64,000 nucleotides of DNA from an uncultured archaeon (GTDB taxonomy: Archaea; Asgardarchaeota; Lokiarchaeia; Sigyniarchaeales; SOKP01). The position numbers and the translations under genes were made by a program. The first letter of the stretch is position 1. The number at the start of each line of letters is the position of its first letter. Positions 2,882 to 59,501 of this stretch are shown in pieces. The stretch spans positions 1 to 64,000 of the forward strand of contig CAZBPC010000004.1 in the NCBI GenBank assembly GCA_964493715.1, in the 5' to 3' direction. The notes below the pieces were generated by a model that searched no databases, had not been told where the DNA came from, and saw nothing but the letters and a program-made list of their open reading frames with translations.

Positions 2882-4150
2882 TTATTTTTTTTTTTCTAAA
2901 CTCCATAAACGAGCTAAATTAAGGATCACTTCTGTAGCCTTTAGCATTCCTTTTGTTGGAATAAACTCCTTTCTTGAATGAAAGAGAGATCCTCCACTAA
3001 ATAAATTGGGAGTTGGAATTCCCATTTCACTCAACCTTGCACCATCAGTACCACCCCGTATGGCGGGAGAAATGACTTCTAATCCCGCTTCCTCTATAGC
3101 TTTCGTTGCAATCTCAATAACATGTTTATTTTTTTCTATATAGACTAACATGTTTTTATATTGATGCAATAAATTGAGTTCGATCTTCAAACCAGGATAT
3201 CGAATCTCAAATAGGCTTTTAAGTGATTTTATATAATTTATCCTTCTTTCATTATTATCTGAATCGTGATCTCTTATGATAAGTTTTGCAGTTGTTTCCT
3301 CTTCATCTCCTTGTAAATGATTTAAATGGAAAAATCCTTCACGTTCCTCAGTATGTTCCGGACTCTCTGATTCTGGGATATTGCTGAAAAACCTGCTTGC
3401 AATATGAATAGCGTTTATCATCTTGTTTTTTGCATGTCCTGGATGAACACTTAATCCTATGAACTTAATTTGAGCGAGCCATGCATCAAAACACTCATAT
3501 TCTAATTCCCCCATTTTTCCTCCATCTAATGTATAACATGCTTCAGGTAATCGACTTTTATCAATTTTAACCGTTCCCATTCCTATCTCCTCATCGGGTG
3601 TAAAACATATAGTTATTGGGCCGTGTGTAAATTCGGAGTATTTCTGCCATATTTTGCACGCAGTCATGATTTCAGCAATACCAGCTTTATCATCAGCTCC
3701 TAGTAAGGTATCCCCAGAAGAAGTAATAATATCAAGTCCTATATATTCTTCCAATTCAGGAGCATCTTTCAAGGTGATTTCTAGGTCATCAACATTTGGG
3801 AGTTTGATAGACACGCCCTTGTAATTTTTATGAATAATCGGTTTAACATCCTTTCCACTTACTGCATCAGAAGTGTCTAAATGAGCAATCAATCCAATAG
3901 GTGGTGCATTTTCTAATCCTTTCGACGAAGGCAGATCAGCATATACATAACCAAATTCATCATGAACTATATTTTCTAAATCTAGTTCTTTTAATTCTTC
4001 AACTAGTATCTTTCCTAAATCAAGTTGATTCAAACTTGAGGGATGAGTCGATGAATTACTATCTGAAGTAGTCCAAACCTGGACATATCTAAGAAATCGT
4101 TCAATTACGTTTTTCAATAAAAAATCTTGAACTTCAGCTGATATATTCAT
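2882..4150 (-). CDS. pepT: Peptidase T (M20B tripeptide aminopeptidase)
   Basis: AHLDT, LLGADDKAG, PDEEIG, HPGHAK, IRGGTDGARLS and FHSRKE motifs. Confidence 0.92.
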   Translation of the reverse strand: MNISAEVQDFLLKNVIERFLRYVQVWTTSDSNSSTHPSSLNQLDLGKILVEELKELDLENIVHDEFGYVYADLPSSKGLENAPPIGLIAHLDTSDAVSGKDVKPIIHKNYKGVSIKLPNVDDLEITLKDAPELEEYIGLDIITSSGDTLLGADDKAGIAEIMTACKIWQKYSEFTHGPITICFTPDEEIGMGTVKIDKSRLPEACYTLDGGKMGELEYECFDAWLAQIKFIGLSVHPGHAKNKMINAIHIASRFFSNIPESESPEHTEEREGFFHLNHLQGDEEETTAKLIIRDHDSDNNERRINYIKSLKSLFEIRYPGLKIELNLLHQYKNMLVYIEKNKHVIEIATKAIEEAGLEVISPAIRGGTDGARLSEMGIPTPNLFSGGSLFHSRKEFIPTKGMLKATEVILNLARLWSLEKKK

Positions 4151-11340: not shown

Positions 11341-14300
11341 CTCTTCTTTTAGAAATTTGAGATTTTAAATCTTCTTCATTTCCAGCGGGTTCTTCTATTT
11401 TTTTTAGGGTAGCTATCGTTGAAATACTCGATTTCCCATCAACTTCACTCTTCAAAGAATTAATAGTATTTTCAACTAGAGGAATTAAAGATATTCCGAT
11501 TAAAGTATCTTGAAGATTAAATTTAACTTCATTTAATTCTGAAATTGCCCGCTTGCGTTGATTTTTCGATAGCGATATTTGAGCAGAATCTAAACCTCGA
11601 TAGGACATTTCAAATTTTTCCATGTTTTCACCCTTTTTAACATCATATGTTGTAATTATCGGTACTTGACTTGCTGAAACTAGTGTATCTATTTGTTTGT
11701 TTACCTGTTTCAAAAGTTTTTCCTTCCCTATCTTTTTTAATTTTCTTGCTACTTTTTTCAAAACTACAATAGCCTCATTATACTTTAAATCTTTTAGAAT
11801 TCCATTTGCTCGTTCCCACTCCTCTTTGATAAATTCTTCTCGTTTAATTCTTTTTTCTTCTTTCTTTATTATTTCTTGTTCATTCCTTTTTATTTCCGCT
11901 TCTTTTAAAAGAGCTTCAATTTCTTGAACTTTTTCGATTTTCACTTGTTTTAAAGCTTTTAATTTTTCAGTTTGTTTCTTTTCTTTCTTTAATATAAATA
12001 GCAAATCATTATTAATACGGCTAACTTCATGATGCCAATTAAGTTTATCGAATAAATCTCTTGCCATAATATATTTTTCATAAGCTTCATCAAATTTTTT
12101 TTGTTCTTTAAAATCAGTTCCTATTTCTAACAATTTGTATGCTTGTTCAGAAATGGATTGTTCTTGTTCCTTTTGACGTTGGGTAACCAGAAATTCTTGT
12201 CGTTTTTGTTCTTCTTGCATTTTCTTTAGTTCCTGAGCTTTTGAAATTTTTTCATCTATTTGGGCTATATACTGCAATTCTTCTTGTTCTTGTTGTATTT
12301 TTAAATTTCTTTCATATTCTAATTGTTCTTGCTTCTTCTTTATAGCATTTATAGAGCCTTTTACCATTTGAATTCCTTCTTTCCAATTAATTTCTGAGAA
12401 GATTTTTTCGCTTTCGTTGTAATATTTAATAGCTGTCTCAAAATTGTTAAGTTTTAATTCTTTTTTTGCTAAATCCATCATACTAAAAGCTTGATCTTTC
12501 TTATAATCATACTCTCTTTCCTTCTGCTTCTTTAATTCGAGAGCCTGAACTTTTTGTTTCATCAATTCAGCTTCAGCCTCACGTGCTAATTTAGTTTCTA
12601 ACTTTTGTTTTTGAAACTCTTCATCCTCTTTATGTAATTTTTCATTCTCTAAATTCCTTAAATTTTTATCAGAAATTAATTTCTCTTGATAATAAGAAAT
12701 GGAATTTATTATTTTAGCTGCTTGATCTGTCCATCCGATTTGTTCAAATTTAAGTTTTGCTCCTCGATATACTTCAATAATTTTTTCATAGGGACATTCT
12801 ACATTTAAAATTCCCTTCTTAATCTCAAGATCATAGTTCTTAGCAATTTTTTCAGCTTCATTAATTTCATTGAAGATGGATTCCACTTCAGAATTTTTTT
12901 CTCTTTTGCTAGTTTCGAATTTTAAAGCACTCATTTCCTGTAAATTTGCTGTTTTATTAAATGATTGATCAGTTTTAATCACCAATTTCCTCTCATCTTC
13001 TAGTTTTTGCATCTCTAAATTTCTAAGATTATCATCTCTGACCTTTTTTTCCTTATAAAATTTAATAGTGGTTAATAAACGGTTTGATTCGTCAGTCCAC
13101 TCGATATCTTTAAATATTTTTTGAGCTTGTTCATATTTTAGGATTGCATCATCATACGGACTCGTAAGGAGTAAAATATCTTTTTTAATAGTCAGCTCAT
13201 AACTTCTAACTGCATTCTCAGCTTCATTGATTAGATCCATTGCTTTATTGAGTTGGATATCTTTTTCACTTCTTTTTTCTTCTAATTCTTGTAATTTCTG
13301 CAAATTTGCTGTTTTTAAATCGTCTTTAACTTTCAAAGAATCTTCATAGATATTTTGTTTTTTAACTTTTTCTAACTCTAATTCTCTTAATCGGTTATCT
13401 TTCTCATACTTTTCTCGAAATAAAACAACTTGATTTTTATATAGGGTTGCTTCTTCTTTCCATCCCCTCTTATAAACTTGTCTGTATATATCTTCATATG
13501 TTTCACTGATTTTTAAATATGGACAATCCTTATCAAATTGACCTCTCTTAATTGCCATTTCATACTCTCTTACTTCTTTTAAAGTTGAATTGATAATATC
13601 ATCAATATAATTTTCAAAATTTTCATCCTCTTGCTGCTTTTCATCTATGAGGTCAAGTTTCTCTAATTGAAAAGCTTGTGTACTATCTTCTTTATGGATT
13701 CTTTTTGATTCTTCAAATTCTTTATCTTTTTCTAGCTTTTGAGCTTCAATCTCGCGTATTTTTAGTTCCTTGTTGTATAAATCAGTATATTTTTTTATTT
13801 GGGTCGAATAAACGGCAGCTTCTTCACTCCATTCTTTTTGAGATACAAGAGTTCGTGCTTGAGTGTAAATTTCTAATATCTCGGGGTATTTTGATTCTAT
13901 ATCTAACTCTCCTTTTTTTATCGCTGTTTTAAAAGCTATATCATATTCTCGTGCCATAATTTCAGCCGATTTAACCATTGCACCAATCTGCTGGCGAAAT
14001 TCTAATACGTCCTCTTGCTTGATCCTATCTTTTTCAAGAGTTCTCATGTTTTGAATTTTGGTATCTGTCTTTGCATCCTTTACTTGAATCTTATGCATTG
14101 CTTCAAATTGTTTATCTTTTTCTAGCTTTTGAGCTTCAATCTCGCGTATTTTTAGCTCCTTGTTGTATAGATCAGTATATTTTTTTATTTGGGTCGAATA
14201 AACGGCAGCTTCTTCACTCCATTCTTTTTGAGATACAAGAGTTCGTGCTTGAGTGTAAATTTCTAATATCTCGGGGTATTTTGATTCTATATCTAACTCT

Positions 14301-19403: not shown

Positions 19404-19720
19404 TTTTTTTTTCTTAATTTGAAAAATAAGGGAGTCTTAAAGCGATTTTGTTATGATACTTTGTTAAAACTTGATTAATTATTCAAATGTTAAATCTTCT
19501 TTATGATGTATAGACTTGTGAAATTCTTAAAGGGTAAAACTATTTTTAAAAATGGAAATTAGTACCTTTTTTATGATTTTATCTTTTCTAATAATCAAGG
19601 ATTTTTAGTGAAATTTCCAAGATCACCAATTTTTAGCTTATAAACAATAAATTAAAATTGTCTTGATAATATTATCACATAATTAAAAATATATACTAAT
19701 AATGAAGGTGTGATTATAGA

Positions 19721-20486
19721 ATGTTTGGAGGCGGAGGTCGAACTTACGATCGCGCGTTGACCGTGTTCTCACCTGAAGGGCGTTTATTTCAAGTCGAATA
19801 TGCTTTAGAGGCAGTAAGGCGTGGGACACTAGCCGTTGCAGTAAAAACAAATGATTGCGTGTGTTTAGCAGCTCAAATTAAGATTCCCTCGACATTAATG
19901 AAAGCTGATTCAATTGATAAGATTTTCCAAGTCGATGAACATATTGGAGTTGCAATTTCTGGTTTACATGCAGATTCGCGTGCCTTAATTAATTACGCGC
20001 GAGTACAAGCCCAATCTTTTCGCTTAACTTACGATGAACCTGTCCGATTGAATATGTTGGTGAAAACAATCGCAGATATAAACCAGCAGTATACCCAGTA
20101 CGGTGGAAATTTCTGGAACAATTAGTTCCTGAACCAAAATCAGACCATTCGGGTGTGCTCTGTTTTTTATTGCGATAGATGGTGCGGGTACTCAAATTTA
20201 CACGACATCTCCAAGTGGAATTTATCGGTCATATAAAGCGTATGCTTTGGGTAACGGCGAAGCGACGGCGAGAGAATATCTCACTGAAAATTATAAAGAA
20301 GAAATGACTTTTGACGAGGCGATTAAATTGACGTTAAATGCGCTTATAGAATCGATAGACGAAGAGCCAACGAGAGAAAATATAAGACTCTCATATATTA
20401 AAGCAGATGATAAGAAATTTCACGAAGCTTCGAAGGACGAAGTAGAGAAATTCTTGAATTCAATAAAGAAAGAATTAAAAGCATAA
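19721..20486 (+). CDS. psmA: Proteasome alpha subunit, interrupted by a 31-nt insertion (spliced product 244 aa)
   Basis: YDRALTVFSPEGRLFQVEYA, GLHADSR and YTQYGG are in one frame. IRPFGCALFFIAID...TSPSG...YKAYALG resumes in the +1 frame at 20139. Removing 31 nt gives 735 nt, or 245 codons. Confidence 0.9.
20109..20139 (+). other. Candidate bulge-helix-bulge mRNA intron (31 nt)
   Basis: Internal hairpin UUC-U-GGAAC/GUUCC-U-GAA, central helix GUGG/CCAA (one G-A), 3-nt bulges AAA and AAU, and an exon-exon helix CAG(C)AGUAUACCC/GGGUGUGCUCUG. Predicted cuts regenerate GGA-AUC-AGA. Confidence 0.65.
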
Positions 20487-20637
20487 AATTTTTTTTTACC
20501 CTCTTTTTTAATAATCTTTAACCATTTGTAAGTTTAAAATTTCCATAAAACAGATAATAGCCTGTATTCTTATTCTAGCTCTATATTTTAGAATAAAATT
20601 TTAGCAATTCAAGAATGCTATAATAATCTATTAAAAA

Positions 20638-22702: not shown

Positions 22703-22795
22703 ATTAAAAATTTATATTTTTTTTTTAAATTTTACTTTCAAATAATTTAGATCTGTACAAAGAAAAGAAAAAAGAAAAAAATTATAATTAAAATA

Positions 22796-24511
22796 TTATT
22801 TTGAAGCTCTAAGAGCTTTCTTGTCCACTTTCCCGACTGAAGTTAGTGGAAGTTCCTCCGTGAATTCTAATATCTTCGGGACTTCATAAGGTGCACAATT
22901 ATCTTTTGCGTACTGGATAATATCTTCCTTTAATGCATCTTCATTTCCATCAAACGCAAAATTTGGATCGATTTGAATGTAAGCTTTTACAAGTTCCGAA
23001 CCGGGACGATCAGGATTTGGAATACCGATTGTAGCTATAGCTCCTATTGCAGGATGCTGGGTAAGAGTATCCTCAACTTTCACAGAAAATACTTTATATC
23101 CCCCAACGATTATCATATCTTTCGTTCTATCAACTATACGAACGTAACCATCTTCATCCATTACACCCATATCTCCAGTGTGCATATAACCATCAGAATC
23201 GATGGCTTTTTTCGTTTCATCTGGTTTATTGTAATAACCCGTGGTTACCATTGGACCTTTTACGCAGATTTCTCCTGGCTGACCTAAAGGTACTTCTTTG
23301 CCACTATCTGGATCCGATAGTTTCAAGTTGACGTTAGGTAGGGGTAATCCGACTGTTCCTAATTTTTTCTTACCTTTGGATGGATTTGCGCATGATAGTG
23401 GTGAAGTCTCCGTCATTCCATAAGCTTCTAAGAGTTTTCCTTCTCCTACAATACTTTCTAATATTTCTTGTGATTCTTTAGGGAAAGGGGCAGCTGCAGA
23501 AACTATAAAATCAAGCATATCTTTGTCTACTTTTTCAAATTTAGGATCTTTTAATAGCATTTGATATAATGTAGGCACATTTGCTAAGATATTAGGTCGA
23601 TATTTCAACATTTCCTTAATGATATGCCCTGTGTCACGCGGATTTGGTATTAGAACTTGCGTGTAACCAAGAGCGAGGACGTTGGCGCAGGTAAATAAAC
23701 CAGCTATGTGGAAGAATGGAAATCCCGATAAACCAGTACCGCTTCCAAATTCCCAGCTTAACCAATGTTGAAAGATTTTTACATCGCTGACAAAGTTTCT
23801 ATGCGTTAAAATGGCACCCTTAGGCGGTCCAGTGGTTCCACCGGTATATTGAACAAAAGCAATATCATCAGCACTTACTTTAATATCTGGTAAGGTATCA
23901 GCATATTTCCCTTTCACGTCCTTGTGATATTCTAAAACTGCCTTTCCTTCAATGGGTGTAACTTTTCCTTTTGGAACCTTTCCTAATAATTTCCCCATAA
24001 TACCCAAGAATTTTGGCATGAATCCCGCTACACTTGTGGTTACTACAAGCTTTAGTGACGGTAGCTTTGAAGCTATCTTGGTAATGTGACCTGCGAACAC
24101 GGCATCAAGTGTGAGTAACGCAACTTGTTTACCACCAGATCCAAGATCATTTAATTGATATTGGATTTGTACTGCAGACATGAGAGGAGAAACACCAGAC
24201 ACTATCATACCTATTTTTAAACCTCCAAGAGCCGCTATAACATATTCAGGAATGTTAGCTGTATTAAGACCGATAACATCTCCCTTTTTGAATCCATGTT
24301 CTATCAACATGTGTGCAAATTCATTTGAAAGTTTATCTAGATTGGCATAACTAATTTCAGTCCCATAAAAAGCCATTGCAATTTTATCTGGGACTTTTTC
24401 AAAAGTACTTCTTATCAATTCGGTATAAGATGTCTCAAATTCTTTAGGATCAAGATCATGAATCCCTTTATCATATGATTTTTCTTTCCAAAATCTACTA
24501 TTATACGACAT
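22796..24511 (-). CDS. Long-chain fatty-acid-CoA ligase (AMP-binding)
   Basis: QYTGGTTGPPKG, YGMTETSP, HTGD, DRTKDMI. Start moved to the ATG at 24511 (MSYNSRFW) by alignment with the paralog at 27727. Confidence 0.9.
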   Translation of the reverse strand: MSYNSRFWKEKSYDKGIHDLDPKEFETSYTELIRSTFEKVPDKIAMAFYGTEISYANLDKLSNEFAHMLIEHGFKKGDVIGLNTANIPEYVIAALGGLKIGMIVSGVSPLMSAVQIQYQLNDLGSGGKQVALLTLDAVFAGHITKIASKLPSLKLVVTTSVAGFMPKFLGIMGKLLGKVPKGKVTPIEGKAVLEYHKDVKGKYADTLPDIKVSADDIAFVQYTGGTTGPPKGAILTHRNFVSDVKIFQHWLSWEFGSGTGLSGFPFFHIAGLFTCANVLALGYTQVLIPNPRDTGHIIKEMLKYRPNILANVPTLYQMLLKDPKFEKVDKDMLDFIVSAAAPFPKESQEILESIVGEGKLLEAYGMTETSPLSCANPSKGKKKLGTVGLPLPNVNLKLSDPDSGKEVPLGQPGEICVKGPMVTTGYYNKPDETKKAIDSDGYMHTGDMGVMDEDGYVRIVDRTKDMIIVGGYKVFSVKVEDTLTQHPAIGAIATIGIPNPDRPGSELVKAYIQIDPNFAFDGNEDALKEDIIQYAKDNCAPYEVPKILEFTEELPLTSVGKVDKKALRASK

Positions 24512-59400: not shown

Positions 59401-59501
59401 AGCCCCCGGGGGGATTTGAACCCCCGATCTGCAGATTACAAGTTTCAGCAATTAATATAAGTTAATTAATTTCTGCTGCTATACCGCTAAGCCACGGAGG
59501 C
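59401..59501 (-). tRNA. tRNA-Thr(UGU) with 29-nt BHB intron at position 30/31 (intron 59444-59472)
   Basis: Acceptor stem GCCTCCG/CGGGGGC with U73, anticodon arm GCAGA-CT-TGT-AA-TCTGC after splicing, T-arm GGGGG-TTCAAAT-CCCCC. Strict BHB: CAGC/GCUG helix with AGA and AAA bulges. Confidence 0.93.

Follow-up and report, generated by a model that had tools for sequence, protein, structure and literature searches.

Can an archaeal proteasome gene that is split by a stop codon and a frameshift still give a full-length protein? The question is raised by a 64,000-nucleotide (nt) stretch from an uncultured Asgard archaeon of the Sigyniarchaeales lineage SOKP01 (assembly GCA_964493715.1, contig CAZBPC010000004.1, positions 1 to 64,000), hereafter the window. 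Its gene for a proteasome alpha subunit, at 19721-20486 on the forward strand, carries an insert at 20109-20139, between the motifs YGG and IRPFG, for which an initial annotation had proposed a bulge-helix-bulge (BHB) intron. We find it highly likely that the insert is a genuine BHB pre-mRNA intron within coding sequence. It is very probably removed from the mRNA by the splicing endonuclease EndA and the ligase RtcB, both cutting and ligation in the host being steps that we infer. In what follows, G stands for genomes (G000 being that of the window), C for contigs, L for allele or contig records and X for sequencing runs.

The translation of the locus and its Pfam matches agree on a gene in two halves, with YTQYGG parted from IRPFG by 31 nt that bring both an in-frame stop and a frameshift. 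The exon-1 open reading frame (ORF) starts at the ATG at 19721, runs to ...NQQYTQYGG, continues into five foreign codons (NFWNN) and ends at a TAG at 20123-20125. The remainder of the protein, IRPFGCALFF..., lies in a different frame from 20140 to the stop codon at 20484-20486. Positions 1-99 of the Proteasome profile match on the 20107 side (19814-20107) and positions 99-188 on 20136-20396. The gene can be assigned to an alpha subunit because Proteasome_A_N matches 19745-19813. When exactly 20109-20139 is taken out, the computed ORF is 244 amino acids (aa) long, as had been predicted, and an excision shifted by -1 or -2 gives the identical product, owing to the A runs.

The genome is metagenome-assembled in 160 contigs (3.68 Mb, scored 100% complete), a fragmentation that speaks for an assembly or sequencing artefact. 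A 470-nt contig from DNA run X2, from a different sample, covers 20018-20487 with the insert and 0 differences, so the insert is independently carried by DNA; the joined form was found in no DNA contig. Inserts at the same site were additionally seen in four other assemblies or contigs, described below. We regard the probability of an artefact as negligible.

We then examined the fold. All of the parts that the initial annotation had assigned to a BHB were located: a hairpin, GUGG opposite CCAA with one G-A, bulges AAA and AAU, and an exon-exon helix (Table 1). Its description of arms, loop and bulges stood, except for U20110, which separates the AAA bulge from the UUC arm: either this U makes the bulge one of 4 nt, or the bulge keeps 3 nt and the arm pairs in the register UUU/GAA, with one U-G pair. 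The intron hairpin h' has 8 base pairs (bp), directly follows the 5' bulge and has a fold energy of -7.2 kcal/mol. The central helix H consists of three standard pairs and an outer G-A, and the outer helix h of one G-C pair, then an internal loop, then a 12-bp exon-exon helix. The fold of a 79-nt stretch reaches -24.7 kcal/mol (z = -3.3), whereas 200 shuffled versions averaged -15.6 +/- 2.8 and none did as well; its minimum-free-energy (MFE) structure includes both the hairpin and the exon helix. The motif is thus a relaxed, HBh'-like BHB rather than a canonical one. Nothing in Rfam matched 19600-20600 at E <= 1. The rule that the cut falls after the second bulge base derives from the tRNA 37/38 site; applied to each bulge here, it assembles the codon for Ile-130 from the A of exon 1 and the UC of exon 2. 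A preprint states no more than that EndA cleavage lies inside each bulge, as far as its accessible text goes (10.64898/2026.10.13.758758).

The structure was compared across other alleles. An orthologue was present in 35 of the 41 genomes of the genus, and three of them carry an insert at this first site: the window (31 nt), G015 (30 nt, in frame and ending in TAA) and G042 (32 nt). The remaining orthologues are uninterrupted or truncated by a contig end, apart from that of G043, which has a separate lesion. In that allele (L046 = G043:C131:35025-37137) 16 nt are deleted immediately 5' of the intron site, with loss of most of ...DIKQQYT and a shift of the frame; gene damage, an assembly error or an intron loss gone wrong could account for this. 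Among 80 further genome contigs three have the insert, two resembling the G015 (L020) and G042 (L044) records and one, L121, being new (29 nt); among 80 metagenome contigs there is one, L150, also of 29 nt. This gives five alleles, of which only the G015 type stays in frame and the other four shift it.

Cutting at the canonical bulge positions restores full-length ORFs of 239-244 aa, reading ...GGIRP(F/Y)G, in all five alleles. They share one layout: a 4-position helix, an outer purine-purine mismatch (G-A or G-G) and a G-C pair beyond it. The 3' bulge is AAU in every case and the 5' bulge AAA in four, with UAG in L150. Beneath this layout the letters vary, with three hairpin sequences and two loop sequences among the five (both hairpin and loop of L121 being wholly different), and a U-A pair of the central helix is A-U in G015 and L150. 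Across the three alleles that could be aligned, 93% of cells pair, versus 19-42% in slid-partner controls. Five pairs changed on both sides, all of them in H and h', a number reached by 3 of 500 shuffles; they include three of the five inner h' pairs. Structure rather than sequence is conserved among the homologues, which is what the initial annotation had suggested looking for in psmA orthologues.

The same gene is interrupted at a second site in two metagenome contigs, L168 (~750-779) and L178 (~747-776), where a 30-nt insert follows ...ALTV. These inserts have 3-nt bulges and 9-bp hairpins that differ in sequence. Their central helix places ACGG opposite ACGG, with two standard pairs only, and the same cutting rule restores ...TVFSPEG.

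The exons also bear a trace of the insert. Codon 130 is ATC in all five intron alleles, its C pairing with the G that precedes the central helix, compared with 2 of 107 distinct intron-less alleles. Intron-less alleles have ATA, ATT or a Val codon here in all but a few cases, and GGA and ATC together in none of the 107 (L178 was left out of this count, as its site-2 insert shifts exon 1). Outside the core, the exon-exon duplex has an energy of -10.9 to -19.4 kcal/mol in the five intron alleles (-18.0 in the window) and a mean of -7.8 kcal/mol (sd 2.8) in 104 intron-less alleles, only one of which (L151) matches four of the five intron alleles. Synonymous sites are shaped by RNA structure only where the insert is present. 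L151, an intron-less metagenome contig, has an exon-exon helix of -20.6 kcal/mol, as strong as in the intron-bearing alleles. Either L151 or L178 could be a recent intron loss.

We next asked whether the joined form exists as RNA, the junction search that the initial annotation had proposed. Three metatranscriptome runs from three studies (X15, X16 and X17) each contain a single contig in which the sequence passes from 20106 to 20138 (ambiguity of 2), leaving out exactly 31 nt, and the insert is covered by none of them. In X17 no difference from the window occurs in the 18 bases that precede the joint; those counted after it, 8 in all, fall at listed variants at or beyond 20254, so that by this tally about 116 bases past the joint are identical. 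About 7% of positions in these contigs disagree with the window, which makes their source a ~93%-identical relative, nearer to the window than the nearest intron-less genome, G006 (85.5% identical in exon 1), and its variant pattern agrees with known orthologues at 16 of 34 positions at best, so that it is none of the genomes compared. The search thus returned exact joined contigs, from a relative and not from the window's own strain, and these appear to lend moderate support to splicing.

These contigs, with the insert precisely missing, also bear on the idea that a real insert is neutralised in another way, by translational bypassing (ribosome hopping) or by another RNA-processing enzyme. 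The motif is relaxed, and a hairpin with a stop codon superficially resembles the layout of a bypass element. Inspection of the sequence revealed no matching take-off and landing codons flanking the insert, however, and the joints of the coding-sequence inserts of this genome (see below) occur in all three codon phases, which hopping leaves unexplained. As the EndA rule demands, the frame-restoring cuts always separate the second from the third base in two 3-nt bulges that lie across a 4-position helix, and the tRNA introns of the genome have the same design. We consider such a route extremely unlikely.

A further possibility is that the gene is a recent pseudogene: a hairpin-forming mobile or slipped sequence would have entered one alpha gene, its transcript would go unrepaired, and a paralogue would supply the alpha ring. 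The genome has five proteasome-family genes, three beta, the interrupted alpha and an intact alpha at G000:C2:64859 on the minus strand, which is 238 aa long and 50% identical to the interrupted one. Besides this paralogue, the fact that most orthologues are without the insert speaks for a pseudogene, as does the broken G043 orthologue, which indicates that the gene can be damaged in some assemblies. Both alphas, however, are present in the great majority of 40 relatives searched, from four families of the order; because both are kept, they are old, separate, conserved paralogues rather than a copy and a spare. The intact gene that the initial annotation had wished to see checked for is thus there, as a separate paralogue and not as a replacement copy. 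Moreover, in five scattered lineages an insert sits at one and the same base, compensatory changes have taken place and exon 2 is open (5/5 alleles); synonymous exon sites build the helix only in insert-bearing alleles; and not all the genes with this kind of insert can be dead, since they include rtcB and the sole loci for S8 and EF-2. None of the marks by which a pseudogene is judged (relaxed constraint, decay past the lesion, an unconserved lesion) was seen. Taken together, a pseudogene is very unlikely.

Several observations weigh against a spliced BHB intron. With an intact alpha paralogue in the genome, the cell might survive without the interrupted copy. The core is weak, since the central helix has only three standard pairs and the adjacent h is a single pair with an internal loop. 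L178 reads GGA-ATC without a site-1 insert, so that this codon pair is no proof of an intron-bearing source. The difference in duplex energy (Mann-Whitney p = 2e-4) ignores the relatedness of alleles and overstates the case, the five intron alleles being nonetheless scattered on the tree. The ratio of nonsynonymous to synonymous divergence (dN/dS) in exon 2 is 0.05-0.22 in eight of the 12 pairs with estimable dS, including pairs of two intron-bearing alleles, which would mostly reflect the time before the gain if the insert is recent. Finally, an intron-less or recently intron-lost allele in the relative would give the same RNA contigs, and splicing in the strain of the window itself is seen in no read or contig.

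For the BHB intron, a route of removal can be proposed from components that the host encodes. In the pre-mRNA, the h' hairpin, the 3+1-position helix GUGG/CCAA and the distal 12-bp exon helix would present two 3-nt bulges on opposite strands. A two-subunit EndA would cut after the second base of the bulges AAA and AAU, and RtcB would join the exons, completing the Ile-130 codon and yielding the 244-aa subunit. Both enzymes are available as the initial annotation had assumed: RtcB is encoded by one gene and EndA by two genes of the tRNA_int_endo family, at C5:38084 and C58:18731, both on the minus strand. The best PDB match of one EndA is 3p1z_B (E = 1e-36), and this gene is most like crenarchaeal two-subunit enzymes; the second is more distant (1a79_A, E = 9e-21). 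We take the Tyr/His/Lys motifs as the basis for judging which subunit is catalytic. The pair fits the (alpha-beta)2 EndA that is reported for Asgard archaea, with an L1 loop tied to broad specificity, in the accessible part of that study (PMC5829648).

The tRNA genes of the genome offer a reference for the motif. Aragorn found 27, 12 of which have introns, and a boundary search of our own around the aragorn limits showed that several of these introns are 29-30 nt long, with a 4-bp H, 3-nt bulges and a hairpin. The window itself has a tRNA-Thr(UGU) at 59401-59501 on the minus strand (aragorn with intron search), whose 29-nt intron combines a hairpin with a 4-bp H and the bulges AGA and AAA. A second tRNA search of the window, besides that with aragorn, returned 0 tRNA genes.

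Is the alpha gene alone in this? Scanning the genome for BHB inserts whose removal unites two open frames, and then matching the exon pieces to Pfam, we identified at least nine further coding-sequence inserts of this kind, so that, with the alpha gene, at least 10 inserts of ~30 nt each interrupt eight genes (Table 1). The catalogue is a lower bound and has no error rate, as filters and junction peptides were judged by eye without false-discovery control. The insert in rtcB has bulges AUA and AGA, a 9-bp hairpin and a central helix with 4/4 pairs (UUGG/CCAA). It is also present in G001 with one base different and was absent from the other genus genomes whose alignments were inspected, the remainder having long open frames. 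The inserts in the NAD-synthase-like gene and in the class-I aminoacyl-tRNA synthetase (aaRS) gene, which we take to be LeuRS-like by motif, likewise have 4/4 pairs. In the second of the three thiolase inserts the central helix contains an inner mismatch, and the two ends of the insert carry a 5-nt direct repeat. The 3' bulge reads A-purine-N in 12/12 hand-picked coding-sequence inserts.

Ribosomal_S8 and EFG_IV each have a single locus in the genome, and both are interrupted. The S8 insert recurs at the same site in L264 (G023) and L270 (G004), with two compensatory hairpin changes, and L265 (G003) has a 29-nt insert 6 nt upstream instead. The S8 insert is absent in the three nearest relatives of the window's genome.

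The history of the alpha-gene insert was traced on a tree of 106 alleles built with the insert columns removed. To account for the five intron alleles takes five changes, and shuffled labels need no more; the distribution is patchy (5 of about 110 alleles, scattered on the tree). G042 (L044) sits inside a tight clade whose other members are without the insert. Compared with L040, L026, L028, L025 and L146, between 11 and 16 of its 39-55 differences fall in a single ~59-nt stretch at the junction, 1/12 of the gene. This cluster fits an intron that arrived together with flanking exon by recombination (a co-conversion tract), or rapid local adaptation after the gain. L020 and L050 are identical over coding positions ~177-354 and elsewhere show 11-19 differences per 59 nt; these mosaic stretches show that the alpha gene does undergo recombination between species.

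The element seems to belong to a family of small introns, patchy in distribution, which a broad-specificity endonuclease tolerates. Because there are many similar inserts in unrelated genes, its removal is most likely constitutive, that of a tolerated element rather than a switch specific to the proteasome. We further think it fairly probable that a family of uniform ~30-nt BHB mini-introns has colonised many protein-coding and tRNA genes of the genus, with members that arise, disappear and move from one species to another at fixed sites, probably along with flanking exon. The synthesis of RtcB would then depend on pre-existing RtcB, and this archaeon, a prokaryote closely related to eukaryotes, would run mRNA splicing by protein enzymes throughout its genome, with turnover of its introns.

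The nearest known case is the intron of cbf5 in Crenarchaeota (Desulfurococcales, Sulfolobales), described in the accessible parts of two papers as a short, often relaxed BHB in coding sequence that is cut by a hetero-oligomeric splicing endonuclease, ligated, and lost in some lineages (PMC10485636, PMC2738675). The alpha-gene intron is alike in being a short, relaxed BHB inside coding sequence. It differs in its gene (proteasome alpha), in its phylum (Promethearchaeota, of the Lokiarchaeota type of Asgard archaea), in a host genome with at least 10 inserts in eight genes, one of them with three, and in a far patchier distribution. Whereas splicing of cbf5 was shown experimentally, that of the alpha gene is what we infer. 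Archaeal tRNA BHB introns, those of 29-30 nt with a hairpin in this genome included, have the same motif and presumably the same enzymes; the host here is an mRNA, so the motif's exon half must be made up of codons. Repeated gains of tRNA introns in Asgard archaea are reported in a preprint whose accessible text makes no mention of mRNA (10.64898/2026.10.13.758758).

Two other systems invite comparison. The HVO_1309 intron of Haloferax volcanii is an mRNA BHB cut by the splicing endonuclease, according to the available sections of the sources (PMC7714728, PMC10485636); it lies in the 5' untranslated region and not in coding sequence, and the Haloferax endonuclease is of a different type. The splicing of HAC1/XBP1, to which the initial annotation had likened it, resembles the present case in that a short mRNA intron is removed by proteins only, independently of the spliceosome, with a change of reading frame. 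RtcB is given as the XBP1 ligase in the portion seen of one paper (PMC8718801). HAC1/XBP1, however, uses the IRE1 endonuclease on paired stem-loops as a regulated stress switch, while here the sites lie in BHB bulges and no evidence of regulation was found.

In the accessible parts of a 2020 paper (PMC7714728) and a 2023 review (PMC10485636), coding-sequence BHB introns are given as those of cbf5 of some Crenarchaeota only, and the review expects more to be found. Our literature search, which left aside supplements that could hold such data, brought up no publication in which protein-coding genes of Asgard archaea have BHB introns. The alpha-gene element would accordingly add to the cbf5-type kind, as a member of a patchy mini-intron family found in no paper. 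If this is correct, such introns split not only a proteasome gene of an Asgard archaeon but, going by the same signature, also its genes for translation factors, a ribosomal protein, an aminoacyl-tRNA synthetase and the RNA ligase itself, and the expression of core genes depends on tRNA-splicing enzymes. The insert in rtcB suggests a self-dependent loop in which the ligase is needed to make itself. Gene callers would mis-annotate such genes, taking them for split genes or pseudogenes.

Table 1. Features of the interrupted alpha-subunit gene (window positions) and inserts in other genes of the same genome (contig positions)
Feature	Position	Strand	Details
Exon 1	19721..20108	+	ATG to first base (A) of Ile-130 codon; ORF, Pfam
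Intron	20109..20139	+	31 nt, in-frame TAG 20123-20125; missing from uninterrupted orthologues
Exon 2	20140..20486	+	UC of Ile-130 codon to stop; Proteasome profile 99-188
Distal exon-exon helix (outer helix h), 5' strand	20084..20096	+	pairs with 20151-20162; in MFE fold
Distal exon-exon helix, 3' strand	20151..20162	+	MFE fold, allele comparison
G pairing with C20141	20102	+	sole h pair adjoining BHB core; G-C invariant in 3/3 aligned alleles
Central helix H, 5' strand (exonic), GUGG	20103..20106	+	opposite CCAA 20134-37
Central helix H, 3' strand (intronic), CCAA	20134..20137	+	sequence, allele alignment
5' bulge AAA	20107..20109	+	predicted cut between 20108 and 20109
3' bulge AAU	20138..20140	+	predicted cut between 20139 and 20140
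Intron hairpin h'	20110..20133	+	arms 20111-20119 / 20125-20133, loop AAUUA 20120-20124
rtcB insert	G000:C2:12136-12164	-	29 nt between ...GGVGY and DINCG; Pfam RtcB 1-47 / 48-426
NAD-synthase-like gene, 1 insert	C39:8748-8777		Pfam 3-143 / 144-242
Ras-family GTPase, 1 insert	C6:80447-80476		Pfam 1-58 / 60-160
Class-I aaRS, 1 insert	C44:26027-26056		Pfam 4-46 / 48-135
aEF-2, 1 insert	C76:5211-5240	-	exon 2 begins at GTP_EFTU position 48
Ribosomal protein S8, 1 insert	C26:4049-4077		Pfam in order
Thiolase, 3 inserts	C28:22400-22430, 22709-22738, 23007-23036		31, 30 and 30 nt; Pfam in order across all

The catalogue was reached through successive filters. A first scan, for a BHB with an intron of 12-130 nt that fuses frames of >= 40 codons, lacked specificity by far, with 174,150 raw candidates. 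Hairpin-energy filters alone left 170 to 1,423 rows, which were judged by eye for motif continuity. A codon-usage coding score was abandoned, as true cases scored 0.16-0.44 and were not separated from background, and psmA was dropped by it. The bulge filter (B1 = A-N-N, B2 = A-R-N) was derived from accepted cases, is circular as evidence and served only to shorten the list.

Hits in MvhD/FlpD-like genes at C59:~3903-3926 and C74:~12580-12600 (both minus strand) were rejected as introns: an in-frame stop lies between ...GADG and ...C.YETGN, at a position that presumably holds selenocysteine in relatives. Weaker candidates, with a one-sided or weak Pfam match, are a VWA_CoxE-like, an alpha/beta-hydrolase and a thiolase-like gene, the last on C145. 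Further candidate inserts lie at C7 20216-20245, at C78 2103-2130 and, within the window, at ~56267-56300 of C4 on the minus strand.

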